Assembly (NCBI GenBank): GCA_017499595.2
Contig: CM039007.1
Coordinates: 868,001 to 932,000, forward strand
Direction of reading: 5' to 3'
Length of the DNA stretch: 64,000 nucleotides
DNA from: Psilocybe cubensis
Lineage: Eukaryota
Shown piece by piece: positions 5,118-55,681 of this stretch (position 1 is its first letter; the number at the start of each line of letters is the position of its first letter). A model generated the notes under the pieces. The model saw only the letters and a list, made by a program, of their open reading frames with translations. It ran no database searches and was not told where the DNA came from. The translations under genes and the position numbers were made by a program.

Positions 5118-7236
5118 CTAAATCATGGTCCCATTACCATTGCCAACTTGAGCAGGGGGGCCTCCAAACTTGATACGGAGAATTTCTTCGTCACCACTGA
5201 ACATTTCATCTGAATGGAAATCACTGCCAGAGTCGGTCATGGTAGTGTGGTCATCGTGATCGTCGTCCCCAGCGAGTTCGTCGAGCTGCTGTTCACCACC
5301 GGAGTCAGATTCCAACATGTCCTCTTCCTCATCTGAAGGGATGTACCAGCGATCCGCATGAAGGTAAGAAATGCCACCGGTTGTGGTATACATCGGTTCC
5401 TCCATTTCGACATCATCTTGCTCCGAGTCGTCGTCTGACAATTCATAATCATTTGATTGATTCGGTGGCACTATATTAGGGGAGGTCAGAGTGGACGATT
5501 CGGAGGCGATTTGCGAACGATTCAGGTCAGGATTCAAGACCGATTCTGACGCAGAAATTTGCTTCCGAAGCGCGATTCACTCTGACCCCCCCATTTCAAA
5601 ACTTCGATTCACCTTCAATTCAGTAGGCGATTCACGGATGGTCTTTGTGCCAACTGATAATAAAAGTTGTTTAAAAGTAGTTTGAGAGAAGGTTTTGTAC
5701 GCACTCAATCGAGCATTTGGATAGATCCTCTCCTTCTGCCTCGTTCTCTATCTCAGAACAATCCGATTCTCCATCCGATGACTCTACAAGCACCTCAGCC
5801 TCCTTCTGTTTGGCCCGCCGTGTAGATTTTGCTTTTTTGGCCTGTGTTTTGGTAGGTTTCTTGGGTAACGTGGTCTTGCTGAGCGATTTTGACGATGCTG
5901 AACGAGTTGTACGGCTCGAATTTTTGGCGGCCATAGTGAGAGCCTCACAGAAAGAGTCTGTGTATCACACCAGCCCTCACGATGATGGAGAAAAATCTTG
6001 ATCATGTCAAGATCAAATATACAATTAGGTAAATTGAAAATAATTAATAAATTAAATACTGCTCGATTCTGCTGAGTAGAATCAAGCTGTTGAATCGTCT
6101 CTGAATCGTCGAAGCGGCGGAGCCGCTTCGACGATTCAGAGACGATTCAGCGATTCGGCGATTCACGTTCTGAGGCGATTCAGCGTCTTCCCACGCTTTT
6201 GATGACCAGAATCGTCTCTGAATCGTGTCGCTGAATCGCCTCCGAATCGTCCACTCTGACCTCCCCTATTTTCGGCTGCGATGTCGACCGAGTCCAAAAT
6301 ATCCCTCGGTTGAGATTCAACCTGCCCGCTATGTTTGGGGTATGTCACCCAAACGCCAGTTTCTTCTTCTTCCGTGACCCAGTTTCCGATGCCAGGGAGA
6401 ACAGATATCTCATCCAGTATACTTTCAATAAATTCATAGCCGTCAATGTCATCTTTGGCGAGAGTCAATCGTCGTCCCAAATAGATTTTCCAGTCGCATT
6501 CGACCATTGAAAGACCAGCGAATTCTTCAAAGAGGTCTTCAGTGACCCTTGCGACGATTCCATTGGTGTAGGTAAATTCAAGTTTAAAAAGTTCGCACAT
6601 TTCTGGGGTCGCGCCCCGGCGGAGAAGTGAGCGGTATTCCCGTGCGCGCGATTCGTACAAGGCAGGAAGTGGAGAATCGTCCTTTGGAATGGATTGCAAG
6701 GGCGTATTTCCTCTGGGGGCCATGCAGCGGTCTGGATGTTCTAGTTGAGACTCTGTTGACGCCATATTCTCATCCTGAGGAGTTTAGGGAACTTAGTTGC
6801 AGCGAGAACTTGCATCGAAGATTTACCTCCATGATTTGATGCTTTTTGCGACATAGAAAGCAGTAACCGTCAGTGACTTCCCCGCCACAGGCCTGGTCAG
6901 AGCAAAGGTAAATATCTTTGCATTCGTAAGATTGCGTAGGTATGGGGAGATCTTCTCCATCATCGTCGTCGGAGTCATCGCCTTCATCATCACTCTCCTC
7001 ATCGTCACCTTTGTCGTCCGAGTCCTCAGTATCCAGATCGTCTTCAGTGGAGTCTTGGTCGGATTCAGACCCGTTGGAAACAATTTTTAAAGCTTTCTTG
7101 AGGCTTTTAATTTCAATCTTTTTTCTTTGCAGTTTCTGGGCCATGTTTTGTTGGCATTTGATTCGAACAAATGGGTGGTACGCACCAATTTCATATTACT
7201 TATTTGAGCTTCCGCGTCTTCTAAAGAGGTGGCCAT
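5118..7236 (-). CDS. Uncharacterised acidic protein, paralogue B, interrupted by a MITE at 5478-6267 (disrupted, or rescued by splicing)
   Basis: Exon 1 MATSLEDAEAQISNMKL|KLQRKK; YLCSDQACGGEVTDGYCFLCRKKH; ASTESQLEHPDR and LLRRGATPEMC shared with paralogue A. The C-terminus NDYELSDDDS...DRWYI resumes in another frame after the insertion. Confidence 0.75.
5478..6267. mobile_element. Non-autonomous TIR element (MITE), possibly PIF/Harbinger-related
   Basis: ~34-bp perfect TIR AGGGGAGGTCAGAGTGGACGATTCGGAGGCGATT at both ends. ATT direct repeat at 5475-5477 and 6268-6270 (or TA, ambiguous). Removing the element restores the host reading frame. Many GATTC/GAATC subterminal motifs. Confidence 0.9.
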
Positions 7237-16253: not shown

Positions 16254-16711
16254 TTCCAGAAGGGAGGGGTGAGATATCTTGGGAAATGAAGAATCTTTTT
16301 GAAATAACGGGGTATTGTGTTGGAATTCAGAAGTGGTGGAGTCTTCAGGGATACCCTGAAGAATCGGGATATGGGAGAACAAAAGAATGTATGTTTTACA
16401 GATTTGTATGTAGGAATACACTTGAGCCACTTGAGCCACGGGGGTTTAACTGCTTTGGCAGTTTGCAGTTGTAAGTGAACTATGTTTATGTTTGATGGAT
16501 TTGAGATGAGATTGTGAGACTTCAGAGTACTGAGTGCCTTTTCTGAGCCGTTGTAATGCTGAAGGCCTGAAATACCGCTATGAGCGGCGTCTTAGGGTGC
16601 GTGAGGGCTCCTTTGGTCTTCTAACCAGTTGAATACAAGACCCGGAGGTTAAAGTTGAACGCTGGGCTATAGCCCGATATGCCATTGCTAATAAACTACC
16701 TACTTTACATA

Positions 16712-19203
16712 CTACTTACGAGACACGAGATAATTGATTTTTCGGGGCGGCCACATTCTGCTTTGGTTGTTTGTCATTGCTGTGGGAGAAATCAAGATGT
16801 CAGAATCTCCTGGTTCGGCAATGCCATGCCTGAAGAAAGAAGAATATTAGAAGGGATTTCGAAATGGATGCATCAGACTTACTCCTTCCATACGTGTTCA
16901 TTAAGAGTAGCACCGCACTCTTCCTTTCTGCAATGGGCACAAACCATCGAAATATTGTTTGCGTACATGCGACCGTTATCGCTGTCTATGCACCTTCTTG
17001 CTACAATCTCATCTTCCCCAGTAAGCAATTCATAGTTGCACACGGACCCCAATCCGGGGAGTAATTGTCGATCATGTGCAATGCGATGTTCATCCTAAAA
17101 GTGAATCCCCCCGAATCAGACCAGCGAAATTGTCAAGTGATGGCTACACCTACCAGAATATTCCACCTTAAAACACAGCGTCCCTTAATGAGACTGTTGC
17201 AAGATACACATTCGAATATCGGATCAGCTGCATCCATCTCCTCAGAGGTAGTCACGGCCGGATCAAATCCAAACTGCTCGAGAATGTCCGCCATGGCTCG
17301 CATGCGATCTTTGTTGAAATATATACCGTTTTCGTCGTTCCAAATCGTGCTCCTGGTATGATGTGAAAGTGATCGACGTTCCAACTCGTCCAGTGCCTTT
17401 TCAGCACTAATATATGGTTCATATGGAATACCATGATAATGGGCCAGGACATTAGGATACCGCAAGTGGTCGCTACGGCACGTTTTGCATGAGAAGATAG
17501 TTGTTGCCAGTCGAAGCACGCTGCTTTCGTCAAAATTATATGTAGTGCCACAGGCTGATTTGATCAGGCTTATAAGCTTCCCTTCCATCTGGGTCCGCCA
17601 CTCATGGGAAATTTGTGCGTAATTGACACGCAGGGGATCGAGGTGCGCCGAAGTGAAAGGTTCTAATGATGTGTCGTCTATTAGGTCTCGCACCAGCTGT
17701 ACCTTAAACAAATCCGCTGCAGAGGGAGTCGGAGTGTACAGCGAATACTGCGCTGCACATTCTTTGGCGACTTTGGATAATATTGGCAGCCGATTTTCCA
17801 GAAACACCCTGCGATCGGCTTGCAGTCTTAACACGCGGGACTCGCTCATCAATACATTGAGGTCCGGACCCATGGAAATCAATACTTGTTTAAGCATAAA
17901 TTAGTACTTTCAAAGCAGTTTGTTAGGCATTGCGCACCTGTATCAGTCAATTCATTGCAGCATGCATCATAAATTTGAGGTATATCAAAAAGATCTTCGT
18001 AACCGTCTTCGCTCATAAGAGAGAGCTCGGGTTCCCATCCTAGTGATTTTAAGTGGGCGACAAGCCTGTCAATTATTCCAAAGGTGTTAGTGTCCTGGTG
18101 TATGGGTGTAGAAGATCTTCTCACCTTGATTGACGACGAAGAAACAAGTTATCCTCTCTTTCGTTTTCGTCCCATGTCTTGTAGATGGCAGCATGCTTAA
18201 CGAGTTATACCTTAGCTCAAGGGTCTCTGACAAAAATATCAGGCTTACCGTTTCTATGTTGTTCAATTCTTTAATTTTGTCAGTCATCCAACTTGCCGGG
18301 TTTACTGACAAGGAACATTCTCTCTTCCACTTTTTTCCAGTTTCAAGTAAGTAGTACGACCTGTAGGCTGGGTACCGTAAGTTGTATGCACTGAACAGGA
18401 CTCAACACGGCTTACAATGGTCCTTGTACGGCAAGAGAACTCTGGGAAGGTATGGTATCAACTCCATGGGGCATGTCATCTGTACCTGCGCATCTGTTGA
18501 TAATTGCCCACGGATCATCACGAATCTAGTCATATCAAATAAGGATACAGATTCAGGAAAAACTTCAATCATATACGCGCCTGTATTGTATACACGGCAC
18601 ACAAGCTCGAACTCTTGCCGCAAAAACGGTGATCGGTGCTCTGTTGTCTGCGCCAACGAACCTTCCGCAGTACTGTAGAACAGGTCATTAGACAGAAAGA
18701 TGGAAATTAAACGCTAAGGAATACCCACTTGACACTTCTTACCAAATGCCAAATTCGTATACTGGATGTCCGTTAAATCTGGTGGACAGTCTGGCATCCC
18801 AATAAGCTCCCTGGAGGCTTTCCACAGAGTCGGCGCCACGTCTGAGCTCTTCAGAATATGTCGAAAATGTATTGAAGTGCACGATAGGTGCCATAAATCT
18901 TTCGGCTCTAAATCTGTGCAGATCTGATAGAGCAGGCAAACATAAGAGGTGTATAGCGCGGCTACGGGAAGAATTTCTGACCTCAAATGCCAATATTTCT
19001 ACGGGGAGCCCACCCAGAGAATTCGCGGAGTATACAGAGGTCTCGTTCAACTCATTTGCTGGCGTTCTCATTTTCTTCGGTTCTCTTCCTTCATTCAAGA
19101 CGTCAACATTGGTGTCCTGACTAGATCGCGACCGCTTTACGGTCGCGTCTCTATTAGTAGTTGATGATGAAGAGTTGTCGACGGTAGAATGGAGTTCAGG
19201 CAT
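16712..19203 (-). CDS. F-box protein of an Agaricomycete-expanded family (copy 1)
   Basis: LGGLPVEILAFE|ICTDLEPKDLWHLSCTSIHFRHIL (F-box), PDCPPDLTDIQYTNLAFG, Cys/His clusters; collinear with the paralogue at 31910-34447. Confidence 0.85.
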
Positions 19204-19394
19204 TTCGACTGGGGAGAAAACAAGAAAGAATGCTACGAGTTCACCGTGTTGTGCTTTATAAAGACCAATTTCAACCAACGGTGCCCTCCAAGTGATGGGA
19301 GGCCCATCAGGGCCAGATTTGATGGGCCGAGCGGAAGCAATAAATATTAGATACTCTCTAGTCAAAGGTTTAGATGATTTTAAAACCCGCAAGT

Positions 19395-19601
19395 TTACGA
19401 ATAGAAGTTTCTGACCTCAAATACCAATATTGCTTTGGAAAGTCCGCACAGAGAGTTCTTCTCTAGAGAGGCATTGCTTGCAACCCCGTTCAACCTTTTT
19501 GTTGGCTTCCCCTTTTTCTTCGGTGGGTTCTCTGCATTCAAGTCATCTACATTGGTGCGACGATGTTGAAGAGTTCTAATAGTAGGTCGGTGTGATCCCA
19601 A
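19395..19601 (-). pseudogene. 5' fragment of an F-box gene (exon 1 plus start of intron 1)
   Basis: TNVDDLNAENPPKKKGKPTKRLNGVA...NSLCGLSKAILVFE|gtcaga matches exon 1 of the intact F-box genes; no downstream exons follow. Confidence 0.75.
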
Positions 19602-20033
19602 ACATCGTAGACTGGGTTCGAGTCTAGAAGGCGACGCCGCGACGGTCCTGCAAGATCGCGTTGATGAGCTGTTTTAGCCGGCACCAATCGGCTTGGTTAT
19701 TTTTGTTACTATGTTAGTGGTGCCGCGCGGCGCTGTCTGTGGCTTGCAGCCATATTTTTGAACTCCGAATATCGTCACATTATTCAAACTTTCCTTTCTC
19801 CAGGATATTTCTGTCAGCCTGCCTCTTTTACCTGATGTTCTCTGTTAAATTTCTTCCTAATCGATCTGTACCGTCAAAACGGTTTAACCTGCTCTACCTC
19901 CTTCTGTCGTCATTGAACGACAGCACGGAAATTTAACAAACTAAGGAATGCGCGATGAAAGTTAATTTCACTTGAAGAGTATACATTGGCAGACACTATG
20001 TCGTATAATGCACGGTTCAAATCAACATGTACG

Positions 20034-21810
20034 AAGCTTTTATCCACTCAGAAAGTCCTTTACCCATGGTCAGCGTTTCCGATGCGGTGTATCCGACCTG
20101 AGGCTCCTGTTCAACTCATTTGTCTTGCTTGACACTGAATTTTGGGAAGATTACACTGATCACCCTTTTCCATCAACGGGTGCCAGTGTGCAAATCATGT
20201 AGGATAAAGGGTCTGTTCTATATGTTTTTTTCTCCCCTTCTCCTCGCATTTGTGTTCTCAGACACCAAAAAGCTGTCTCTAAAGCCGACTTCTCCGCATG
20301 TGGTACGCCAATCCGCTGTTGGATTCCCGTGGACACACGCTATCTCCTTTGCACAGCAACGCGTGTGATTCTGCACCAGCACTCGAGGAGTGCTCGTGTC
20401 AGAATCAGCGTTATCAGATGGATAACGATCTTTCGAAGCTTCGCTGTCTTCTGCAGACACGTCCGGGCCTGTACAGATTGTGCCAAAAAGCGTAAATAGT
20501 TGGAAAACCGACACTCTCGGGCACAGCAACGGTGACACATGTCGTGCACGGATGTGATAGAAGTCCAGAGCAGCATGCGTCGCCGTCCTTCAACTATTTT
20601 CCTTTTCGAGCATAATGGTATGTTTTATAAAGGGCTGTGCTGCAGCCTTGAATTACCAACAACCTCATCCTTTCCCTTGCAGCATTCTCCCAGGTGAGTC
20701 GATCTCGCACTACGATTAGCATCGCAGAGCTCATCGCTGGATGCAGAATACGGGGTGCAGTTCAGTCCACACGGACGATCTGCAGGTGAGCTTTTACGAC
20801 ATTGCGTTGATCCGCGCATTCGCTGACTCGTTCAATTACTTTAGGCTGCATGCTGCATATTCATCCTCTTCGTCAACGAGTGGAGGATGTCTGCTACCTG
20901 GCGCAATAGCTGGGTAGCAAAGCCAGTTGGTTGCGCAACGCGACCAATTGGATGTTTCGTACTGACCTGCCTCTAATCGAGGCAAGGACACACAGACGAT
21001 GGAGCGGCGCCAACTAGCCGCCGCTCCTCGTCGACGTTTGGAAATGTGAGTGGTTGATTCTAAATCGATTGCGTCTTGATCTGACCTGTTTGTAGGCTAC
21101 TGCTATGCCGTTTATATGCCCACATGATATGCTCAAAACAACAGTCCCGTTATCGTCTAACTCGACGAGGGACATGGTCCTATTGCTTGATGCTCGATGT
21201 CTTGATACCTGAATTACTGGCCTGCAGCCGCTCCATTCGGAGATAGCTGGGCGAACGCTGTCTGGTCTGCACTTGGTCTCTTGGTCTCTTGGTCTCGTTT
21301 GTCTGTGTCTCGATATTTGTCCCTGCCTGCAGCCGCTCCTCCAAACGGAGATTGCTGGGCAAAGCTGCTCGTTCCCACATCTACTCGATCTTGTCGCTCC
21401 TTTGAAAAGCGAGGGAGCGGCCGGACGGTAAAGGCTGCCTACCGCATCACCGCGGCCGCAGCAGTAATTTTTTTCTCCAAGAGTGGAGGGGTTCCGACCT
21501 CCATCGTGCATGCCTTGTCGTGGCCTTGGAGCTTGAACACTTTCCATCGGTTGCATTGATTGTGACCGGTGGAGGTTGACCAAATGCACACAAAAAAAAC
21601 AGGAATCGGTAAGATCACATAGTCATTGTCTAGTTTGATAAGTATTTGCCTTTGTATCTAAACTCACTTTCAATAAAAATATATCTACAACTATACGCTA
21701 CATCATAAATGTTAAACAATTGAGTTCTTCACTTAGAATGTTAAATTTGTCACTCTTATGTAAACTATACTAGTGGTTACAAAACATGCTGAATACTACC
21801 GAGTTCGAGA
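20034..21810 (+). repeat. Copy A of a ~1.75-kb inverted repeat; probably carries a spliced non-coding transcript on +
   Basis: Reverse complement of 36792-38549. By eye ~97% identical over 20041-20340, near-identical over 21096-21590, decaying beyond ~21600. Six or seven GT-AG intron-like segments. Confidence 0.92.
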
Positions 21811-22278
21811 TGATTGATAAAGTCGTTATTATCGAATCAGCTCTATACTCGTCGATACTTTGGGGAGAGAAATAATTTGAATTACCTAACAATATGCCCA
21901 TAGGCCCTCCTGGTGCTTCATCCGTGTTCTCAATCGCTCGAGCCTGTTCTACTCACGCCCCGGAGCATGTCTATTTTTTCGCGTATTTGAGACCCAAACA
22001 TCGTCATTCTACTGTGTGTTGTTCGCTGATTTGAGAGCTCCGGGGGCCTACCTTTGCTTACCTTTGACCGGAGCACCTGTGGGTGGTTGGGTTGTGCTTG
22101 AGTAAGCTCAAGTTTGGGTCAAGTCATGTCACTGACATCAACATCAACACGTGATTGTGTGAAAAAAATTTACGGCTCCGAAGACCGCAATAATTCTTTT
22201 TTGAACCGACTTCCAGCTTTATTTCATGCCATCACCATACTTATTACCAACGATTCTAACATAAATCATACGCATTCG

Positions 22279-25200
22279 ATGCGCGAGATTGTATCCAATC
22301 ATCAGCTATGCGTTCGAACATATCCAACCAACCAGAATGATGCCTTTGTGCCCAATGTCAATGTTGCGCTGTTGACGAGGTTGATCCACGATGGCACTGC
22401 CAATTTGCTACCCGGTCGTGATCTGAAGGGTAAACGAAAAGCATCCAACGATATAGAACAAGAAGAAAGGGAATCAAAACGGGCAAGAAATTCTGCAAAT
22501 TTGACCAGTAACACAAAGGAGAGTACTCAGCAATATCGTGTCACGGTCAGCTATCCAACGATCTCTTCACTGCGGTCCCAAGATATGCCTCACCATGGTG
22601 AGATGGCACCTATTTTGCATCATCTCCTGAATATACACTATGATAGTGACTTGACCCAGGATATTGGGTTTGCTAGACCAGACCCAGTCTCCCTCGACAT
22701 TTGGAACAGAGAGGATGATGAACTGCAGGCGGCTCTGCTGGCATTGAATGGGTCCAGCCTCGATTTGGGAATTGTCAGGATTACCCAAGACGGTGAACAT
22801 GTAGTTATCGTATCCGGAAAAGGGGAATGGTTGCTTACCACTCCTTCCCTTCGTATCGACGCCAACTCTCACGACATTCAGTCTGAATCGGCCGTTGATC
22901 TTCTACTTGCCATCCGGACACTGCAACTGATGGGGAGGTCGCACCTCGAAGCCAAGTTGAAAGTACTGCCTCCATCAGAATCTTTTTTCTTTTCTTTGCA
23001 GCTAGAGTATACGGCATCAATCGTTCTCCCTGCAATTATGAAACCGTTTTCATCTAAACGCGTCAGCAAGAAAGATGTGCACTCGCGTCAGGATGCTCGG
23101 CGACGATTTTTAACCGCAGCTTGGGTCTATGACGATATGCATGACTCCGGTGGCAAAGCCATGACAGTGTCCTCATTTTATTCTACGATGGGACCTGCTC
23201 CGCCGTTACCATCTCCGGAGGCGACCAAGGCCATGCAACCGGTTGCCCTCTCTTCCACATTGCTTCCTTTCCAACTCCGTAGTGTTGCCTGGCTTTTAGA
23301 ACGAGAAGGCATATCAGTCACTTCCGACGGCAAACTCGTCCCACAGGAGTCTTCTGGCCAATTTTCGTTTTGGAGTGAGGTTAAAGATGGTGAACGAACT
23401 TGGTATTACAATCGCTTGAGTGGTGAGCTAGCAGAAGAAGCACCCGAGTTGCCTACGATACACGGTGCAATGTTGGCAGAGGAACCGGGGTTGGGTAAGA
23501 CTGTAGAAACCATTGCTTTGATGCTTCTCAACCCAGCCCCTAAGGACTGGAATCCTAGTTTGACACGGTGGGATCCCGATGGGCATCTTGATGTCAAAGC
23601 CATCAAAGTAACCTTTTTTCCTATTCGCTATATTGTGTGCTTAATTATTGTTCTGTAGAGCACTTTGATTGTTACTCCTCCTTCGTTGGCATCGCAGTGG
23701 AAGACAGAGTTGGCAAACCATGCACCCTCTCTCAAAGTTCTTATGTACGACGGATGGACCAAAGTTAAAGTCCCCATCAGTAAAACAAAGTGGGGCCTTG
23801 AACGATTCAAGAAGGTAGAATTAGAATCAAGGCCCAAGAAAAAAGGCAAATCCAAAGCACGGAATGTTGAAGAGGACGGGTCAAATTCGCGAAGTGATGA
23901 CGGTGAAGTCCTCGAGTGGTGTGAGTACGTGCACCAATTTGATGTGGTAATTACCACATATAATGTGCTGAGGAGCGAGATTCACGTCGCGCGTCCTCCG
24001 CCAGACAGACCGAAAAGAGAAGAGGCGTCTTATCATACATCTTCGCGGCTTAGGAGCCCTCTGGTCATGGTTGAGTGGAAGCGCGTAGTTATGGATGAGG
24101 TTCAAATGGTTGGTGGTGGACAGGCTGCGTAAGTCATGCTTTCTCCCTTGTCATTGATAACATCGTTGAATTTTGAACACATCTAGTGAGATGGTGTCTC
24201 TTATACCCCGCCTATCCTCTTTGGCCGTCTCAGGCACACCGGCTAAATCGCAGATGTCGGACCTTATTCATGTTCTCAAGTACGTCGTTTGTATCCTGAT
24301 ACCGCCTTCCCTCGATGTTAATGTGTGTGTTTTCAAGATTTTTGCGCATCGATCAACTTGTTGGCGATCTACGCCTTTGGAATAGACTTTTGAAACCGGG
24401 GTTCGCCAAAGACTTCGCGGCTTTTTTGAAGCATTATGGAATTAGGTATGCTCACATTTTCAACTCAATAAACAACTTCTGATGCGTGCATACTGTAGGA
24501 CAATGAAGTCCTGCGTGACATCCGAATTGACGATTCCTCAACAAACGCGATACCTTGTTGGGATTGACTTAGGTCGAGTTGAGCAACATGTGAGCCATTT
24601 TGCGGCCTCTGAGTACATCTCGATCTTTTCTTACATTGTTCAACTTGATGCGCACTCCAGGTTTACGACCAGACCCTTGAGGCAATCTTACAGCAATTGG
24701 GTCTTGATGCGAGAGGAATTGCCGCTACCGAGGGCTGGCAGGTTAATGGAAATCTCCTACGATCTGCTATTCGTCGGTTGCGTGGGATCTGTACACATCC
24801 TCAAGTATACACCACTTTCTATTCTTTTTCTGTGCATTTTCATTCAAGGATCTTCTATGTAGGTTGGTCAATTACAGAAACGGGGAGATGGTCTCTATAA
24901 ACCGGGCGCTCTGAAGACCATCGATGCTGTCCTTCAGGTATGGAACTTTATGTCACGATCAAAAAGCGTTCCTAACAGGATCTTTGTAAGTCGATGAGAG
25001 ACCAGAACTGGAAAAATCTAATGGAAGATTGGAAAGCCAAAGTATGCTAAACTTGTTGTATATTGTCATTGTTTCTATTCTCAATCTTGTTTTCATAGAT
25101 CCAGCTTATGATCCGTTACGCACAACTGCAACAGAAAGACGACACGGTTCCTAATCACCAACAAAACGCACTGAGAACTCTGGTTCTTGTCGAGGAAGAT

Positions 25201-28200
25201 ACCAACAAACACCTGGAAGAAATCAAAGATGCCTTGACGAAACATGACGCGAAAGGCAAGATCTTGATAGAAGAAGCCGCTCAACTGCGCCAACAACGGG
25301 AAGTCTCAGCTGAAGCTGGCGAGCCGAACGAAAAAGGAAAGGGAAAGGCTCGCGATAGTGCAGACGGTCGTGAAGATGATGGCGGGGAAGACGAAGATCC
25401 GGAGGAAAAAGGTCTTCCTAAGACACCAGCGGGAGAAGAACACCGCGTGAAACGCAGAACGCTGAAGAGCCGCCTGCGCGAGGGGTATGTACTACTCCAT
25501 AGGGTCAAGTTCCTACAGGGTGATGTTTATCATGTCCTGGGACGATCCAACGACGAGGACGCAGCCTATCAGGCTGCAGAACAGTTGCGGCGTCAGCTTT
25601 TAAAAGGTATATTTTTGTGCATCATTTTACCGGCATATCGATTAGCTAAAAGTTTATCGATGTTTTTGTAGTAACTGAAAATGAAGCTGCCAAAGCGATG
25701 AGTATGCTCAACGGACCGAATTTGAAGCCTACTGTGACTCTAAATGATTTAATTATCGAGCTCCCCTTGCTGGGCAAGGGAGGAATTAGGTCTACAGATT
25801 TGGTATGTTCATGCCAACTTAAATTTGCGATGATGATACTCATTCCAGTACTTCGTAGATGGAAGAAGCTAACACCATCGTGGATGAAGTTCTCAATGAC
25901 CAGTCTGATCTTACGTGGGAATGGAGAACCCACATCATGGAGTTGTTAACGAAGCCCTTGAATCCAGGGGGCGCAGAAGACGACGTCGATGGTCAAGAGT
26001 ATCAGCGCACTCTGGATGACCAAGGTGAGGCTGAAACGTACCTGCAGGCATATGCTGCCATTTTATCCGACCGCAGAGAAGCTCTCGTCAATGAGCGCAC
26101 GTTGTTGGCGGCACATGAAGTCCGTGAAAAACAAGTGCGCCAAACTAAAGCTGCGTTGAAGGCAGCCACCGCTGCTGCTGAAGCGTTGGACGTCCCTGAA
26201 GGTCTAGATATCAAGCCAGAGCACGAGGTGTTGCATGAGGAGCTATCTTCTCAACGCAAGGATATATTGATTCGTCTAGATGGGAGGTCTGTGAAGAGCG
26301 TGAGTCGCGATTTTTCTATTCCTTCTGTTGTTAACTAACTATTTGTTTAGATTCTTATTGATCTAAACGGCGTTGCTGTGAAGATATTACAAGAAAACAA
26401 CCCGGAAAAAGTTATTGTTAGGGAAGCTATCGATAAATTGCGACGCTTTATTTCTGAGCAGAGTAAGTTGACATATTTTTCATCATGGTATAGGTCAACT
26501 TATTCTTCGTGTCAGATTCCTTGTACGAAAAGCTTGATGCGGACCTGGCCCTTCTCAGAAAAGCATTCAATCAAAGGATTCTCTACTTCCGGCAATTGCA
26601 GGAAATTTCAGACTCGGTGGCTGATGTTGAGTGGGAAGAAGCTTCAGCGGCGGACGCAGGCCTGGCGTGCGTCACGGAGAAAAACGAGTTGGAAGCAAAA
26701 ATCAATACTACGCGTGCACGGCAGCGATACCTTGATAACCTCGCAAAAAATCAAGATGAAGGTATAATGGATGAAGATGACAAAACATGCATTCTCTGTC
26801 GAAGTGAATTCATCAGAGGATTTATTACGCAATGGTAAGTACTTTCTTCTCAGTTGTAGTTCAATATCTGTGACTTTAATATGCCTACCAGTGCGCACGT
26901 TTTCTGTGAAGGATGTATGCGAGCATGGTTACTACGAAAAGAGGGCAAAACATGTCCTGTTTGTCGGTGAGTCAATTGTTTACTGCGTAACTCCTCGTGC
27001 TCATCATGGTCTCTCTTGTCTAGCGTGGCTATCAACCCAGATAGCGTGCAACGATTCACAGTGAATGCTGCACAGATCGAACCTCCTCCTCAGCCAGTAT
27101 TGGGAGAGCCCGCCCCTCAATCTCGCCGACAGATTGAGTACAACAGAATTGGTATGTCTATCCGGTTATAATGCAGCTCACAGCTCATACGAGGTGAATA
27201 GATCCAGCCATTTTCAAAGATATTCAAACTATGGAGACCTATGGCGATTTCGGAAGCAAGATTCAAACACTGATTCGGCATATATCATATATCAAGCACA
27301 TCGACCCAGGTGCCAAAAGCATAGTGTTTTCGGCTTGGGCCGATTCATTACATAGTCAGGGCTTCATTCAATACAAGGTCTTATTTGGTACATTTCTGAT
27401 ATGCTTTATTCTAGTTGTCGAACGGGCATTCTCGGAAAATGGGATACCATGCTTGAGAATAGATCAGGGTTCAAAAAATGCCGCCGAGAAGTTTGCGGCG
27501 GATCCTGATATTCTTGTTCTTTTGTTACATGGGTGAGCTTCATTCGCCTCTTTAAATCTGAGCCAACATATGCTAATATCATATCAAGAGAGCGAGAAAA
27601 TGCTGGTTTGAATGTCACTTGTGCATCTCGGGTATTCCTTCTTGAGAGTGTAGTTCACCACAGTTTCGAGATTCAAGGTATATGAATGATTTTCAGTTCA
27701 AATTTATGGATCTTTTTACCCATTATGACTATATAATTATAGCTATTGCGCGGATTGACCGCCTTGGCCAAACGCGACCCACAGAAGGTGATGTTTCGAT
27801 TTTTACCGGAATGCATATGCCATTTCTGACCTTGCCATCTCCCTTCTAGTTTACTGCTACTATGCGGAAGGTAGATCCGTTTATTGTTTAAGTTTCTACA
27901 TCTCCGTTACTCATATCATTCGATATAGGTACAATTGAACGCAACATTCTCGACCTCGCTGCTCGAAAAGGGCTATCATTATATACCAAGGAAAATTCTC
28001 ATGGTACTGTGAATGTGTCGCCGTTCAATCAAGACAACGAACAAGATGTCGATAATCCTGAAAGGCGCAAGGGACAGCAACGAGGAGACTTCATCCACAA
28101 AATTGACGATATGCTTTCGATATTATTCCCTCACATGTTTGAGGATCTGGAATATCTTCTACCTCCATCTGTCGCTTTACCCTTTGATCCCTCGATAGAC

Positions 28201-31909: not shown

Positions 31910-34447
31910 CTAAACTGTTGGAGCCCAACGTGATACGGCATAATTAATTTTTTGAGGTGGCCACATTCTACTGTGGTTGATTGTCTTTGCTGCGGGAGAA
32001 GGCAACATGTCAGAATCGGCGAGCTCGGCAATGCCATGCCTAAAAAGTAAAGAGAGTTAGAAGGGATTTCGAAATGGATACATCATACATGACTTACTCC
32101 TGCCAGGCGTGTTCGGCAATCATGGTACTGCTCCCTATTTTTCTACAATGCGAGCAAACCATAGAATCGAGAGTGTTTGCTTGTCTGCGACCATTGTCCT
32201 CGTCTAAGCACCTCTTCGCTGCGATCTCGTCGTTCCCACTCAGCAGTTCATATGTGAGCGGCATTTTACCAGTCCTAAAGTGGCGCTTGTGTCCCCATTG
32301 ATGTCGTGCCTACAAGCCCCCGCGTGAGACCTGTAAAGTCATCAAATCTTGTCTAAACTTACCAACATGTTCCACCTTAAAACGTAGCGTCCTCTGTGCG
32401 AGCAGTTGCAAAATACGCATTCGAATATTGGATCAGCTGCGTCCATTTCCTCAGAGGTAGTCACCGCCGGATCAAATCCAAAATGCTCGAGAATGTCCGC
32501 CATGGCTTGCATATAATCTTTGTTAAAAAATATATCGTTGTCGTCGTTCCAAAACGTGCTCCCAGTACGAATCTCAAGTGATCGACGTTCCAATTCGACA
32601 AGATCCTCTTCGGCGCGACGATTTTGATCAAATGGAATAGAATGGTAATGAGCCAGGACTTGGGGATACCAGAAATTATCTTTGGTTACACTGTGGCTGT
32701 CTTTGCACTTTGTGCATGAGAAAATGGTTGTCGCCAGTCGAAGCACGCTGCTTTCGTCAAACTTATACTCGGTGCCACAAGCCGATTTGATCATGCTGAC
32801 AAGCTTCCCTTCCGTGCGAGTCCGCCAATCCAGGGAGATTTCTGCGTAGTTGAGGCGCAGGGGATCGAGGTGCGCCGAAGTGAAAGGTTCCAATGATGTG
32901 TCGTCTATTAGGTCTCGCACCAGCTGTACCTTCAACAATTCCGCTGCAGAAGGAGTCGGAGTGTCCACTGGATATCGCGCCGCACATTCTTTGGTGACCT
33001 CGGATAATATTGGCAGTCGGTTTCCCAGTAAAGCCTTGCGATCGGCGCACAGTCTTAGCGTGCGGTACTGGGTCATCGATGTATTGATAAACGCTCCCAT
33101 GTCATTTAGCACTGAATTAAATCTAGATTAATACTTTCAAAGTAGTTCGGTAGATATCGCGTACTAGTATCAGTCATTGAGTTATTTTTGCATGCATCAA
33201 CAATTCGGGGTGATTTGAGAAAATTTTGGTAATTTTCTCTGCTCATCTTAGAGAGCTCGGATGTCCATCCTAGCGATTTGATTTGGGCGATGACCCTATA
33301 AATTATTCCAAAGGCGTTAGAGTCCTGGAATATGGATGTAGAAGATCTCCGCACCTTGCCAGGCGACGACGAAACAAATTATTATGCCTTTGTTTCGCGT
33401 CCCAATCTTTGTATATGGTGCTATGCTTAATGTGTTTTAAGTGAGTAAAAGGTGTACCGACGAAGATGTCAGGCTTACATACCTCTTCTATATATTTCAA
33501 TTCTTCAATTTTTTCCTTCATCCATTTCGCCTGATTTTCCGCCGCGGCACATTCTCTCTTCCAAGTTTCCCCTGTTGCAACTGAATAGTACATTTTTTTC
33601 TCTGGATACCGTCAGCTACAAGTAATTACCAGGACTCCAAACGGTTCACCATAGTTTGTGTAAGACAAGAGAACGCTGGGCAGGTACGGGACCAGTATCT
33701 TCGGGCATTTTTTCTGTACTCGCGGATCCATTGAGACCTGACCGGGGCCCTCAACCATTACGAATCTAATGACATAATCAGGAGACAGACACGGTGATTA
33801 TTGTTTAAACGATACACGCCTAGATCTTATACATGGCACGCAGGCTCGAATTCTTGCCGCGAAAAGGGTGAGTGGTCGTCTGTTGTCTTCGCCAACGAAC
33901 TTTTGACAGTACTGTAGAGAAGGTAATTAGATAGCAAACTGGTTAAAGTTTAGAAATACCGACCTGACAACTCTCACCAAATGCCAAGTTCGTATACTGG
34001 ATATCTGTTAAATCTGATGGACAATCTGGCATTCCGATTAACGCCCTCGAAGCTTTCCAAAGAGTCGGCGCTAAGTCCGAGCTCTTCAGAATACGTCGAA
34101 AATGCTTTGAAGTGCAAGATAAGTGCCATAAATCCTTTGGTTCTAAATCTGTGCAGATCTGATGGAGTGGGTAAGAATCTGCACGTTTACGAATAGGAGT
34201 TTCTGACCTCAAATGCCCATATCTCTACTGGGAGGCCACCCAGAGAATTCTCCACAGTTTTTGCCTTCGCTACCGACTTCTTGGGCACCTTTCTCTTCTT
34301 CTTCTTCGGTGGGCTCTCTTCACCGTCGTCGTCAACATTGGAGTCCATAGTTCGCGACCGCTTCGTCGCGTCTCTAGTACTTTTCACGGCTGACGCTGAA
34401 TGTTCAACGGCAGAAGGTACAGCTTTGCGATTACGCAGTGTAGGCAT
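31910..34447 (-). CDS. F-box protein (copy 2)
   Basis: MPTLRNRK...LGGLPVEIWAFE|ICTDLEPKDLWHLSCTSKHFRRIL; same exon structure as copy 1; last exon HGIAELADSD...RMWPPQKINYAVSRWAPTV*. Confidence 0.85.
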
Positions 34448-34840
34448 CTTGGAGGAAAGACTAGACTGATTCTCTTGTCGTGGTTCAAATTCAAGAGCAA
34501 TTTCAACCAACTGTGCCACTCCAAGCGATGGGAGGCCGTGCGCGTGATGTGCCACTGAGCGGAGGCAATAAAAGACTTCATTGGCAAGTTGCGTTCGGCA
34601 CGCCTTGAGAGAAAATTCAACGAGAATGAGATATTGATAATGATAGAGGTTTGTTTTCTATTGGATACATTTCGTTCTCCCTTTCCAAGGGGGTTAAAAC
34701 ATTATTTTGGTCGTAAGCTCTAGATATGTCATAAGGTAGGCGATACAAATACAATTTCCGTGGAGAAAGCGAAGGCGAAGGTGAAGTCGAAAGCAAAAAA
34801 GAGGTCCGATTGAAAAGCGAAGGTGTGTAGAAACTGATTC

Positions 34841-36791: not shown

Positions 36792-38549
36792 ATCTTGAAC
36801 TCGGCTGGTCCAGCATGCGTTGAAACCACTAATAAATTTTAATCTTTCAAGTGAAAAAATTGTTCGACACAAATCACGATTTAGGTGAATAAATGTAGAG
36901 TTATATTCATTGAAGGTGAGATTAGATACAAAAGCACATAATTATAAAACTACACAATGACTATATGATCTTACCAATTCCTATTTTTTTTGTGTGCATT
37001 TGGTCAACTTCCACCGGTCACAATCAATGCAACCAATGAAAAGTGTTCAAGCTCCAAGGCCACGACAAGGCATGCACGATGGAGGTCGGAACCCCTCCAC
37101 TCTTGGAGAAAAAAATTACTGCTGCGGCCGCGGTGATGCGGTAGGCAGCCTTTACCGTCCGGCCGCTCCCTCGCTTTTCAAAGGAGCGACAAGATCGAGT
37201 AGATGTGGGAACGAGCAGCTTTGCCCAGCAATCTCCGTTTGGAGGAGCGGCTGCAGGCAGGGACAAATATCGAGACACAGACAAACGAGACCAAGAGACC
37301 AAGAGACCAAGTGCAGACCAGACAGCGTTCGCCCAGCTATCTCCGAATGGAGCGGCTGCAGGCCAGTAATTCAGGTATCAAGACATCGAGCATCAAGCAA
37401 TAGGACCATGTCCCTCGTCGAGTTAGACGATAACGGGACTGTTGTTTTGAGCATATCATGTGGGCATATAAACGGCATAGCAGTAGCCTATGAATATGTC
37501 AGACCAAGAGGCAATCGATTTAGAATCAACCACTCACATTTCCAAACGTCGACGAGGAGCGGCGGCTAATTGGCGCCGCTCCGTCGTCTGCATGTCTTTG
37601 CCTCGATTAGAGGCAGGTCAGCACGAAACGTCCAATTGGTCGCGTTGCGCAACCAACTGGCTTTGCTACCCAGCTATTGCGCCAGGTAGCAGACATCCTC
37701 CACTCGTTGACGAGGAGGATGAATATGCAGCATGCAGCCTAAGGTAATTGAACGAGTCAGCGAATGCGCGGATCGACGCAATGTCGTGAAAGCTCACCTG
37801 CAGATCATCCGTGTGGACTGAACTGCACCCCGTATTCTGCATCCAGCGATGAGCTCTGTGATGTTGATCGTAGTGCGAGATCGACTCACCTGGGAGAATG
37901 CTGCAAAGGAAAGAATGAGGTTGTTAGTGGTTCAAGGCTGCAGCACGGTCCTTTATAAAACATACCATTATGCTCAAAAAGGAAAATAATTGAAGAACGT
38001 CGACGCATGCTGCTCAGGACTTCTATCACGTCCACGCACGACATGTGTCACCGTTGCTGTGCCCGAGAGTGTCGGTTTTCCAACTATTTACGCTTTTTGG
38101 CACAATCTGTACAGGCCCAACCGTGTCTGCAGAAGACAGCGAAGCTTCGAAAGATCGTTATCCATCTGATAACGCTGATTCTGACACGAGCACTCCTCGA
38201 GTGCTGGTGCAGAATCACACGCGTTGCTGTGCAAAGGAGATAGCGTGCGTCCACGGGAACCCAACAGCGGATTGGCGTACCACATGCGGAGAAGTCGGCT
38301 TTAGAGAAAGCTTTTTGGTGTCTAAGAACACAAATGTGAGGAGAAGGGGAGGAAAAAACATATAGAACAGACCCTTTATCCTCCATGATTTGCACACTGG
38401 CACCCGTTGATGGAAAAGGGTGATCAGTGTAATCTTCCCAAAATTCAGTGTCAAGCAAGACAAATTAGTTGAACAGGAGCCTCAGGTCGGATACACCTCA
38501 TCGGAAACGCTGACCATGGGTAAAGGACTTTCTGAGTGGATAAAAGCTT
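36792..38549 (-). repeat. Copy B of the ~1.75-kb inverted repeat
   Basis: Reverse complement of 20034-21810; the ORF track shows mirrored near-identical ORFs (191, 106, 92, 82, 78 aa). Confidence 0.92.
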
Positions 38550-39195
38550 TGCAGCCAATTGTGAGTGCACCCCGACATTGTGGGCATGGCTGCATAATTT
38601 TCCGACATCAGCCAATAAAATTTACACATAAGTACACGAAAAATGAATTTTACTAAGCGGAGATCAAATTTGAAGACGGCAAACCCAAGAAACATTTAGT
38701 CTCGTACCCACCCGTTATATCGCGCGATCTCCCCCAGCGAGAGTTTGGGCACCTTTAGTCCTATTTTGAGTCGAAGGCAAAAAATTCGACGAACTTGATG
38801 GGGAAGATGCTTGAAGATGGTGTCATTTGCAACGGTTTTATTCAGAAAATTTGACTCTGATTTCGTTCTCCGCCGGAACTCTCCCGAACATCTGGAGCCG
38901 AGATTAGGAAATATGATTGCGAAACATAGCAAAATCGTCGATGAGTAATTACTAAAAGTCGATCTATCAGAACTAACATCGATACGACCATTCTTAGAGC
39001 CATATCCTTCTCAAACTGTAAGGTATGTCGACGGTTTGGTGCAAAATCGTACCATGGTTTGAAATAAATTCAAGATAGGAGCATTCCCTATGTAACTCGG
39101 TTACCCAGAAATTCAAGTCCGACTTACGTTAGGCCTATCCATATGAAAGCAGCTGTAAAGTTAGTTATAAAATCCCTCTAGTCTTTCTTCTCGAG

Positions 39196-39706
39196 ATGCC
39201 TACACTGCGTAAATGCGAAGCTCTACCAATTACCATTAAAAACTCTTAAACATCAGCCCCAACAAAGCGGTCGCGACAGGCTACCGACTCCAATGTGGAT
39301 GACTCGAATGCAGAGAGCCTACCGAAGAAAAAGAGAAAGTCAACGAAAAGGTTGAACGGGGTTGCGAGAAAATTGCTTAGTGGAGACGAGGAGATTGTAT
39401 CAAGAAGGTGCATAGACGACGACAACGGTCGCAGACAAGGAAAAACTCTAACTTCTATGGTTTGCCCCCATTGCAGAAAGACAGGGAGCAGTACTACCCT
39501 GAGTGAACACATATGGAGGGAGTAAGTCTTCTAAGTCATCGTATGGTCCATACATTTTGAAGTCCCTTTTAATTCTTCACTTCCTTAGGCATGGCATTGC
39601 CGAACTAACTGATTATGACATCTTTCCTTCTCCCGTCGCAAAAGCAGTCAAACACAGGAGAATGTGGCCACCTCGAAAAATCAATTTTGCCGTACCACGT
39701 TCGTAG
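39196..39706 (+). pseudogene. Internally deleted F-box pseudogene
   Basis: MPTLRKCEALPITIKNS* (premature stop). Exon-1 sequence (..KKKRKSTKRLNGVA) is fused directly to penultimate-exon sequence (LLSGDEEIVSRRCID..CPHC..H). Last intron and last exon retained. Confidence 0.85.
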
Positions 39707-40041
39707 GATGAACTAGGTATGAATTGAGAGCAATGAGCATAGAAAGACCACATTATGCATATATCAGGTTGGTCAAGAAACAGAATAAAGGCGCACAACA
39801 GCAACCTTTTTAGAACGATTCAACGACTCCATTTGTACCTTGTGGTTTGCAAGAAACGATAATCTCTCCCTTTCGTCTCCATTTTTTTGTTATTTCCCGT
39901 TTCGGGAATCTGTGTCTTCACGACGACGAGCAACACATGCCCACCACCCAACATGATCACCAAATTGCCAGAAGCGTCAAAAGAACATGGCATTACTAGA
40001 GCGGAGGACATTAAAAACTGTAAAATAGGTACAAAACCAAC

Positions 40042-40951: not shown

Positions 40952-41413
40952 GTACCTAAATCGGCAGGCGATGTTCTTCATCTGAAAGAAAGGATTCTTC
41001 ATGGGTCAAGAATACAAAGGGGAATAAGGTCATTGTTTATTTAGCGGTGTATAATTTATTAGAAACATATTTCCAAGGTCTGATGCAAGCAGAAAGTCCC
41101 GTCCGCAAACTGTAAGGTTCGCCGAACCTTGAAGCTTGAACGTCGAACCGCGAACCGCGAGCCTTGAGGCGCAAACATTGATTATTGAACAGCGAACAGC
41201 GAACCACAAACTTGTTTGTAAAGAACCAAAGAAAGCAGCACAATTTTATAGTTTACCTTTTGTTCTGTTCATTCTCGGGCGCTCTTGCCATTTATTGTTA
41301 TTTCTCCGCAGTTCTACTGCAGCTTTACTCCTTGTTTCATAGTTCTTATTATGGATGTACAGTAATAGTGCACGCATACAAAATGTGTGCTTTCGTTCTC
41401 TTCGAACCTCAGT

Positions 41414-42757
41414 ATGGCTGCCCAAGTGGGGAAATATTCCCCGTAAACTTATTTAGGTATTTTTCTTACTGCGTGAATTTGTAAAAAAAAAGTTGGAGCG
41501 CGGAAACATTTTTTGAGTGCGCAGATTGTTTTCTAGCTTAGCCGTAAATATATTTGATTGCGCGGAAACATATTTTGGACATATTTTGCTAGCGCACGTA
41601 AATTTTTACTGCCCTCAATTATATTTAATGCATAAATCCTATGCGCGTAAAAACATTTTAAGCCCCAAACAATATTTCGATGCGCGGAAAACATTGTTCA
41701 ATTGCACTATTTCTAGCCTAAAGTGACCAGCCGTTATGCCGAGATCATGTAAAATGATCTAAAATGGCACCTCGGCACACTAAAACGAGTTCAAGCTCCG
41801 ATAGTTCTACCGCTATTCTATTTATTAGGACAATATAACAATTTCTATAGTACTTTCTATGTAATATTAGCCCATTTCCAGTGGCTTTGTGGTGTCCCCA
41901 TTAGCAGTGCAGCTTGTGCACCATTTCAGACATCTCTAGCATTGTGTGAAAACCCCATCAACCGTGGGAAAGGCATCAATCAGTGCATTCTTGAGCGCAT
42001 CTGTGCATTGGTAGAGTCGGAAATGGGAAAATAGTATTAAAAAAGCATGGTGAGATATGTATTACATAGAAATCTATGAGAATAAGTCAAAATATCATTC
42101 ACAACTACTGTTCACAAAAGCAAAATATCAGCAACGGCCGTCACAATTGCGCATCAGTGGCTGTGCAAGAAAGCGACACTTCACGTTCAAGGCGATTTCA
42201 AGGCAATTATCTCACATTCTTTGATTAAAGCAACATTAATACATTTCAAAAGAGTATATATTATATATAGTAATCAATTTGTAATTAAATGAATGTGGGT
42301 TAGCATTGCATTACAGAATCCTCGATATTTTCTTCAAAAATCCAAAAGGTGGAGCTTGAATTCGTTTCACTGTGCCGAGGTGCCATTTTAGATCATTTTA
42401 CATAATCTCGGCATAACGGCTGGTCACTTTAGGCTAGAAATAGTGCAGTTGAACAATGTTTTCCGCGCATCGAAAGATTTGTTTGCGGCATAAAATGTAT
42501 CTACGCGCATAGTGTTTATGCATTAAATATAATTGAGGGCAGTAGAAATTTATGTGCGCTAGCAAAATATGTCCAAAATATGTTTCTGCGCAGTCAAATA
42601 TGTTTCTGCGCGGTCAAATATATTTACGGCTAAGCTAGAAAACAATCTGCGCACTCAAAAAATGTTTCCGTGCTCCAACTTTTTTTTTACAAATTCACGC
42701 AGTAAGAAAAATACCTAAATAAGTTTACGGGGAATATTTCCCCACTTGGGCAGCCAT
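41414..42757. mobile_element. Foldback-type non-autonomous element with ~390-bp TIRs
   Basis: 41414-41799 is the reverse complement of 42351-42757. Flanked by ACCTCAGT at 41406-41413 and 42758-42765. ~550-bp non-coding spacer; repeated GCGCGGAAACA motifs in the arms. Confidence 0.92.
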
Positions 42758-42852
42758 ACCTCAGTCGTTCTGCTCGAACAACGACTGAGCTCGCTACCAG
42801 TTTTCTTACATTTATTTCAAACAGAGAAAGAAAAAATCCTCGATGTCGAAAA

Positions 42853-54570: not shown

Positions 54571-55681
54571 AAATCGCGCCTTCTTCTTCTTCTTCTCCCA
54601 CAATTACAGCCCGCCTTGTTTGTTCCTTTGCTTGCTCGCTCGGGGAGAGCCTACACGGGGAAATGAGATAATCCCTGCGCCTGTGTTTGGAGTGTGAGGC
54701 CAGTCGGTTGTAAGCACAAGACAGAACAAGACAAGATCCGATATGAAAAGAGTATGAATGAAAGATGTTTCTGATAGGAATGAAGAGAAGAAAGAGCAAA
54801 AAAGAGAGAGTCCAAACAGAGCAAGAGAGTCCTCGTTGCTGCTGCCAGGCTTGGGTGCGGCGGTGCCGTGTACGTATGTATTTCTGTGCTGTTTCCTTCC
54901 TTCCTTCCAAGTCTGGGTGCTGATTCAGACCCTTGATTCCGGGTTTGAAATAGCCAGCGTGTGTCTGTCTGTCAACTATGAGTCCACGTTCGCGCCGCAG
55001 CTGGATATGTTGAGAATAGGACGAGTTTTGGGTGAGGAAAGAGGCGTATGTTTGGGCACGTTGTAGTGGTAGCAGTTGAGAAGGGGACTGACTCCCTTCC
55101 TTACTCGGCGACCACGCGACAATAATCTCCATCAGTCCAAGCCTCATGATGGCTTAGAATCAGAACAAAATATATCTACGCCGATACTTTGGGGTTTGAT
55201 TAATTGCAATCGATATTTCACAGAATACAAACTACAAGCTACATGATGTTATGAACAAGCTTTGGAATCAAGTATTACCACCTGAACATAGGAGGCGATC
55301 CAACTTCCCTTGCCCAACATGTGTACTCCCACAAACATGCGCAGGTCGGATGCTATCGGCATTGGGACGGGCAAAAGATGGATTTCCAGACATAAAGTTG
55401 TGTCGTGCGATCCGGGAACGGCATCTGCGAGAGAACAAATCCACAAAACCTCGGTATTATTCTCATGAAAGTAGGGCAGCGGGTTTGGCAGCGATATCGC
55501 CTACGCGGACATACCCCGACTATCACACACGCGCCTACAAATACCTTCTTTGAAACAGGGTCCGCCGCAACATGCCAAAAAAGAAGAGGAGAAAGAAAAA
55601 AAATGTACACGCGTCCCCGCCTCATGCTCATTAAATATATGTACACGCCGCCAATGACTCTTGAAGGTTTCTAATCGTACC

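Follow-up and report, generated by a model that had tools for sequence, protein, structure and literature searches.

A spliced unit resembling a long non-coding RNA gene, present as two inverted copies in Psilocybe cubensis and probably kept alike by gene conversion

Spliced and polyadenylated long non-coding RNAs (lncRNAs) of filamentous fungi have been catalogued in transcriptome surveys (excerpts of bioRxiv 10.1101/2021.11.08.467853, of PMC8475275 and of the review PMC11413187). In a different setting, the palindrome arms of Y chromosomes are kept alike by arm-to-arm gene conversion (excerpts of PMC3403216 and PMC2997549), and for duplicated ribosomal-protein genes of fungi a conversion mediated by complementary DNA (cDNA) has been proposed (excerpt of PMC6993855). 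The locus analyzed here lies in a 64,000-nt stretch of the Psilocybe cubensis genome (GCA_017499595.2, contig CM039007.1, positions 868,001 to 932,000 of the forward strand), which is called the window below and to which all positions refer. It consists of a short transcription unit present as two inverted copies, A and B. With a probability of roughly 0.6 we read it as a two-copy, lineage-specific, spliced lncRNA-like gene, the copies of which are kept alike by repeated arm-to-arm gene conversion with selection acting on top.

The two copies and their exchange in other strains

Contigs of four public sequencing runs (X1, X2, X3 and X5) were placed on positions 16500-24500 of the window with an identity filter of 95%. 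Runs X2 and X3 were taken as DNA because no intron-skipping joints were present there and the depth was even; scattered differences at single-copy sites indicate that they come from strains other than that of the window. The single-copy depth was about 92 in X2 and 21-23 in X3. The contigs of X1 and X5, which are treated as RNA, skip nine CT..AC introns of gene X, the minus-strand neighbor of copy A (eight of them in X5). One of the nine is CT..GC, i.e. a GC-AG intron (18526-18580), and was seen in contigs of both runs. The X5 contigs also skip three GT..AG introns of the SNF2-family gene located downstream.

An earlier note on this DNA, made from the letters of the window, had proposed two inward-facing copies of a multi-intron gene. 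Such an inverted pair was found and could be aligned (Table 1). In both DNA runs a loose end at 20034 carried the B-side flank, and the DNA depth was 2.1-2.2x in X2 over the shared parts and about 2x in both X2 and X3, showing that the copy number is exactly two in two other strains.

The 1661 ungapped nucleotides contained 67 differences between copies A and B, comprising 49 transitions and 18 transversions. In the last four introns (20618-20682, 20694-20746, 20786-20844 and 21046-21095) there were 19 differences in 227 nt (8.4%), while the three exons between them carried nine in 251 nt (3.6%; Fisher p=0.032 against the introns) and the first part of the last exon (21096-21543) none in 448 nt (p=6e-10 against the four introns). 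These values agree with the manual counts made earlier (19 in about 227 nt, about nine in about 250 nt and almost none in about 450 nt), and the pairwise exon-versus-intron check, now run, gave a divergence that is not uniform. Among 100,000 random placements of 67 differences, none reached a difference-free run as long as the identical tract of 451 nt. Clusters of differences were also detected in exonic sequence, with seven in 20953-21014 and eight in 20548-20607. The substitution spectrum shifted at the 3' edge of the unit, from 43 transitions and nine transversions in 20034-21600 to six and nine in 21601-21694. Past 21694 the similarity was weak in a downstream local alignment and was gone by about 21811. 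Repeat-induced point mutation was rejected as the main source of the differences, with 12 of the 43 transitions located in CpA/TpG, 14 in CpG and 17 elsewhere, and with the 451-nt tract spared as well.

The other two strains displayed a different arrangement of identity. From 21015 to 21543, X2 yielded a single contig of depth 199.8 (2.16x), which was B-type at all six last-intron sites compared (21073, 21079, 21086, 21088, 21091 and 21092), and no A-type contig. From 21015 to 21547, X3 yielded a single contig of depth 42.3 (about 1.9x), which was A-type at 6/6 of these sites, and no B-type contig. These contigs show no difference between the two copies of X2, or between those of X3, through the last intron, with the strains fixed for opposite variants. 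Within 20677-20952, X2 was A-type only (depth 127.9) and X3 B-type only (depth 32.8) at 8/8 sites, all located within 20717-20869; the depth here was just 1.4-1.5x and not 2x, which makes copy identity less certain than for 21015-21543. Both strains had a single contig at about 2x for 20276-20547, B-type at 20462-64 and A-type at 20323 and 20335, and in 20034-20199 site 20117 was A-type in X2 and B-type in X3.

Because X2 and X3 were each homogenized, intron included, to opposite types, these results indicate recurrent arm-to-arm conversion, for which genomic DNA served as donor. Only in the window's strain does the identical tract have its edge at the 3' splice site; in X2 and X3 the edge is located at 21014/21015. 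Since the edge of identity shifts between strains, the 451-nt tract is best read as a conversion patch and not as proof of an invariant exon. Patchy gene conversion explains this tract without selection, and the exon/intron contrast in the window's genome is largely a snapshot of such conversion.

Splicing, 3' end and coding potential of the transcript

A contig of X1 (393 nt, depth 18.1, 110 nt on the shorter side) joins 21045 to 21096 across a GT..AG intron and covers 20936-21045 and 21096-21378 at an identity of at least 95%. The joint was absent from both DNA runs. It coincides exactly, on the plus strand, with the last junction predicted in the earlier note, for which RNA had been named as the check. 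The contig derives from copy A, because the copy-B version mismatches at 7 of the 110 nt and so falls below the filter. Six A/B differences are located in this intron, none of them in the donor, the branch site or the acceptor.

The other introns were judged by a crude donor/acceptor/branch score trained on 12 RNA-confirmed introns of the neighboring genes, which themselves scored 9.8-17.0; as background, the best of 135 wrong-strand candidates reached 11.7. RNA-confirmed introns in the neighborhood were 48-59 nt long with CTRAY-like branch sites. Seven introns had been proposed earlier. The last of these is now seen in RNA and the ones at 20786-20844 and 20694-20746 have strong signals, while 20618-20682 is plausible and the remaining three are unsupported by the score. 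As had been claimed, the terminal GT and AG dinucleotides of 7/7 segments are present in A and B alike. The proposed microexons of 7 and 11 nt follow from the coordinates but are without support, the 7-nt one needing an unsupported intron and the 11-nt one the weakest of the last four. None of the 19 intron differences fell into the 56 donor, branch and acceptor positions (hypergeometric p=0.0035). Selection is therefore indicated on the splice signals, and it is demonstrable on these only.

A contig located at about 21518-21700 had a depth of 479.1 in X1 and 37.7 in X5, with apparent ends shared by both runs. In X1 the spliced upstream contig stood at 18.1 and the neighboring genes at 4-19, the 3' segment being 25-100 times as deep as the neighbors; in X5 the upstream spliced part of the unit was not seen. 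An AATAAA is present at 21672-21677, and the contigs of the two runs end 23 nt further, at about 21700. No poly(A) tail was seen, which contigs are incapable of showing. In DNA, 21518-21700 is single-copy, and nowhere else in the unit is conservation lower (19 differences in 183 nt). The high-depth segment could represent a stable 3' end belonging to the same RNA, a short RNA that starts internally, or an artifact of contig assembly. The stretches without cover from X1 and X5 (19437-20771, about 21379-21517 and 21840-22106) are not informative on upstream introns, on the transcript start or on silence.

A hairpin is located at the end of the identical tract (Table 1), and its pairs were preserved at 3/3 A/B differences, a number that chance could give. 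A hairpin motif is present twice in the last exon (21220-21260 and 21325-21368). Fold energy of 21518-21700 gave no signal (z = -0.49 and 0.70 for the two strands). Among small internal repeats, CTTGGTCT is present three times at 21272-21296, and a 15-nt stretch recurs exactly at a distance of 105 nt. When metagenomes were scanned with the repeated last-exon motif, 0 stretches were returned, and a scan with the N-terminus of the neighboring SNF2 protein returned 41 pattern matches, 0 of which were confirmed.

In five splice models the longest spliced frame with an ATG had 86 codons (20539 to 20973). It is open in both copies, and its 12 nucleotide differences lead to six residue changes. A frame of 65 codons at 20999, which crosses the confirmed intron, has lost its ATG in copy B, and a frame of 35 codons (21105-21209) inside the identical tract is the same in both copies. 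On the minus strand a stop-to-stop frame of 202 codons (21014-21622) is intact in both copies and is interrupted by the confirmed plus-strand intron. It shows nine residue changes between the copies for 12-13 nucleotide differences, had no Pfam match, and retrieved from a large protein collection 353 word-sharing candidates, 0 of them at E<=0.01. Its codon-usage score of -0.049 lay below the mean of the frames with at least 200 codons (0.063), by a crude score of low power which found no coding-like frame in the unit.

Among 19 six-frame open reading frames (ORFs) of the unit, none had a Pfam match better than E=0.15. No Rfam family reached its gathering score in the window and none E<=10 in 20034-21900; around copy B nothing was found at E<=5 except a chance CRISPR-repeat match. 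A tRNA scan of the window detected none. The earlier statement that there is no real ORF thus holds, with a longest spliced ATG frame of 86 codons and no match to a protein or RNA family. The 92-codon ORF reported with it exists as a frame, but it has a TTG start and is part of a 117-codon stop-to-stop frame without ATG. We read the transcript as an lncRNA because no frame exceeds 86 codons and stop codons are located well upstream of the last junction, and we conclude that it is non-coding or at most a carrier of a microprotein.

Three further candidates were rejected. For a fungal telomerase RNA, no 8-mer of the complement of a TTAGGG-type repeat, the only repeat type searched, was found within one mismatch on either strand of 20034-21811, and there was no Rfam match. 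For a host gene of small nucleolar RNAs (snoRNAs), the introns of 50-65 nt are too short to hold a snoRNA, and 20034-21900 had no Rfam match at E<=10. For a protein-coding gene or pseudogene, no recognizable protein homology was found, as judged from Pfam in the 19 frames and from the large protein search on the minus-strand frame only.

Weighing the explanations

According to the preferred reading, a transcription unit of RNA polymerase II would be read from the plus strand of copy A. The RNA would be spliced at 21046-21095, where the joint was observed, and probably at two or three further short introns predicted in 20618-20844, and it would most likely end at a poly(A) site near 21700, after the AATAAA. 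The copies would stem from an old inverted segmental duplication, whose arms they form and which carried gene X along. Its flanks would later have decayed to 74-88% identity or beyond recognition, and the 1.6-kb unit would have been held at 96-100% through repeated DNA-level conversion of the kind known from chromosome palindromes. Identical and divergent stretches alternate, and this mosaic, with the 451-nt tract as part of it, would mark the ends of conversion patches in the window's strain. Selection would act on top of conversion, since the splice signals were spared and since the homogenized block coincides with the transcription unit, which may point to the whole unit being kept functional. 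This coincidence suggests a constrained gene that stays similar enough to keep converting; selection on the unit as a whole is arguable. That the RNA acts as RNA via its long 3' exon is proposed with low confidence.

Several points weigh against this reading. Conversion alone does not account for the 8.4% in the introns as opposed to 3.6% in the exons that separate them, a contrast that fits selection at the exon level. Nor does it account for the higher density of differences in the three weak introns (20211-20261, 20303-20356 and 20544-20610), which carry 13 in 172 nt against seven in 412 nt in the rest of 20034-20617 and which fit the same selection; this excess is not independent, since GT..AG segments are drawable around almost any cluster and may have been picked with knowledge of the differences. 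For the last exon, fold energy was no better than that of shuffled sequences (z=0.06), and no orthologue from another species was obtained in the two metagenome scans. The RNA label attached to X1 and X5 is itself a guess, and we take them for RNA on account of their intron-skipping joints. RNA-type cover inside the unit is limited to 20936-21378 (X1) and about 21518-21700 (X1 and X5). B-type RNA contigs would drop below the 95% filter in the divergent parts, so that the contigs are not informative on expression of copy B. We infer the strand of the high-depth 3' contig, as contigs give neither strand nor true ends. The reduced depth in 20677-20952 belongs here too.

It is unlikely that the contrast is mainly due to purifying selection acting on the exons of a functional RNA, with the last exon as the functional part. 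Such selection would account for the decrease in differences from the introns to the exons between them and to the last exon, for an identical tract that starts 3 nt ahead of that exon, for the spared splice signals, and for a homogenized block which equals the transcription unit between decayed flanks. However, 2/2 other strains are identical through the last intron and of opposite types, so the exon boundary is no stable edge of identity. Zero differences in 448 nt, where the other exons have 3.6%, are better explained by a single recent conversion patch than by graded constraint, and both the clusters of differences in exonic sequence and the lack of excess fold stability speak against such selection. 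In the earlier note, constraint at the exon level had been given as the cause of the contrast. This was not established, as the copies of X2 and X3 are identical across the intron too, while the remainder of that overall inference, namely that the locus is expressed and spliced, is present as two inverted copies and has no credible ORF, stands. A stronger form, in which the 3' exon (21096 to about 21600) is the functional core of a so-far undescribed structured non-coding RNA, with its twofold hairpin motif and the pair-preserving terminal hairpin, is improbable. There the two copies would be kept identical because the sequence itself is needed, e.g. as a ribonucleoprotein scaffold, and the abundant RNA of about 180 nt at 21518-21700 would arise by processing. 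A microprotein encoded by the 86-codon frame, which crosses three predicted introns, or by the 35-codon frame is improbable. In the four-intron model no frame is longer than the former, which stays open in A and in B and has just six residue changes for 12 nucleotide differences, and the latter is unchanged between the copies. Against this, 86 codons are by estimate not unusual in an RNA of 1.5 kb, the 6/12 silent changes are not significant, and the frame needs both the 11-nt microexon and the weakest of the four introns. Its first 79 nt have diverged like introns (the eight differences in 20548-20607), and it stops 70 nt upstream of the confirmed last intron. A stop upstream of the last intron is typical of RNAs that are non-coding or sensitive to nonsense-mediated decay. 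There was no Pfam match in any frame, and the 65-codon frame is without ATG in copy B.

Two further explanations are very improbable. Homogenization of exons only, through cDNA of the spliced RNA with the introns left to diverge, predicts exons that are alike and introns that are divergent (excerpt of PMC6993855), and the locus is expressed, as the depth of the 3' contig in X1 illustrates. However, the conversions in X2 and X3 include the intron and therefore had a genomic DNA donor, and the presumed promoter region (20034-20540) is 97% alike between the copies, which cDNA cannot bring about. The second is a transposon fragment or terminal repeat, or a decayed piece of a coding gene, whose transcription is incidental. 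The inverted pair with its sharp outer edge at 20034 / 38549 resembles such an element, and no function has been assigned to the unit. Against it stand the exact number of two copies by DNA depth, outer edges without target-site duplication or direct repeat, and splice signals kept in both copies. No transposase or other Pfam domain was found in the 19 frames of the unit, and the frames tried between the arms (4 + 13) had SNF2 domains only, in two of them. Moreover, the genes outside the two copies mirror each other, which places the end of the duplication past the sharp edge.

Neighborhood and comparison with known systems

Table 1. Positions of the duplicated unit, its parts and the neighboring genes in the window
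Feature	Position	Strand	Basis
Copy A of the duplicated unit	20034..21694	+	inverted repeat, 1661 nt, 96% complementary, no gaps
Copy B, inverted, 15.2 kb from copy A	36889..38549	-	inverted-repeat search and alignment
Unsupported intron candidate	20211..20261	+	score 6.0, rank 30 of 89
Unsupported intron candidate	20303..20356	+	score 9.3, rank 7 of 89
Unsupported intron candidate	20544..20610	+	score 4.7, rank 39 of 89
Plausible intron, 65 nt, GTATGT...CAG; may instead reach 20746 as a single 129-nt intron	20618..20682	+	score 10.4
Predicted intron, 53 nt, GTGAGT...CAG	20694..20746	+	score 13.4; alternative acceptors 20760 (13.1) and 20765 (14.5)
Predicted intron, 59 nt, GTGAGC...CTGAC...TAG	20786..20844	+	score 15.6, top of 89 GT..AG candidates; no RNA cover
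Intron confirmed by RNA, 50 nt, GTGAGT...CTGAC...TAG	21046..21095	+	joint 21045>21096 in X1; signal score 14.8
Identical A/B tract, 451 nt, spanning the first 448 nt of the last exon	21093..21543	+	zero differences in pairwise count
3' terminal segment of high-depth RNA contig	21518..21700 (about)	+ (probable)	bin depths and loose ends
Hairpin, 15 pairs, at the end of the identical tract	21541..21575	+	A -22.1, B -17.6 kcal/mol, same structure
Gene X, divergent from copy A	about 16560..19440	-	nine RNA-confirmed introns; spliced open frame of 736 codons
X', direct paralogue of gene X, 73% identical	31928..34572	-	self-BLAST
X'', inverted remnant of gene X, middle of gene lost	39171..39741	+	self-BLAST and ORF remnant
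SNF2-family helicase gene, starting about 430 nt past the end of copy A	22102..26338	+	three introns confirmed in X5; ATG near 22126; no RNA cover between the two units

The spliced frame of gene X is one which we take, by eye, to be F-box-like; Pfam searches with two of its exons gave no match. In the self-BLAST comparison gene X was placed at 16718-19344. Self-BLAST aligned X with X'' at 16678-17030 versus 39741-39371 (74%) and at 19474-19555 versus 39371-39290 (88%). The order X''-B outside copy B mirrors the order X-A outside copy A, and an old inverted duplication therefore probably took X and A together. The spacers X-A (478 nt) and X''-B (740 nt) were unrelated, with a score of 26 against a maximum of 27 for shuffled sequences. 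A 1.6-kb block that coincides with the transcription unit is thus found at 96-100% while its surroundings have decayed.

Some other features were observed in the window. In the X-A spacer, 19659-19762 (+) matched Afu_190 (RF01498, a C/D-box snoRNA) over its full length with 26.6 bits (E=0.012-0.019), which is less than the gathering score of 35. A UGAUGA C box and a well-matching guide stretch are present, UUGA stands in place of the D box, and no counterpart exists beside copy B. In a second inverted repeat (41412-41799 / 42351-42759), arms of about 400 nt with 91-98% identity enclose a spacer of about 550 nt. This repeat lies beside an RRM-domain ORF (42687-44141, minus strand), the 3' end of which it overlaps in part. 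A short palindrome is located at 6091-6251, where self-BLAST found 59 nt at 95% self-complementarity, extending to 122 nt at 70%. The G+C content ranged from 41 to 58%, and the maximum coincides with a 1341-codon open frame at 50578-54603 (-).

As it stands, this is an unannotated and fairly ordinary spliced non-coding locus. If functional, the RNA would represent a lineage-specific fungal lncRNA maintained as a pair under gene conversion, and would then be of interest for the upkeep of non-coding genes. Paralogues with conserved exons and diverged introns are usually read as a sign of purifying selection, and a single genome can mislead when conversion shifts the boundaries of identity.

In snoRNA host genes of the UHG/GAS5 type, introns with snoRNAs are kept and exons drift. 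The unit resembles them as a multi-intron transcript without ORF and differs from them in its introns of 50-65 nt and in having no Rfam snoRNA. The duplicated ribosomal-protein genes of fungi, as described in the excerpt of PMC6993855, share with it homogenized exons and more divergent introns and flanks, whereas the conversion tracts of the unit include an intron and the upstream region, and the gene is not protein-coding. Like fungal lncRNA genes, the unit is intergenic and transcribed, with short fungal-type spliceosomal introns, no long ORF and no family match. Unlike them, it consists of two near-identical inverted copies that exchange sequence, and in one run its 3' segment has 25-100 times the depth of the neighbors. 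The Y-chromosome palindromes differ from the present pair, which has arms of just 1.7 kb, a 15-kb spacer with ordinary genes, a fungal location and a non-coding cargo. As in those palindromes, however, the inverted arms are far more alike (96%) than their flanks, that is, the unrelated upstream spacers and X'' at 74-88%, and strains are fixed for the variant of either arm.

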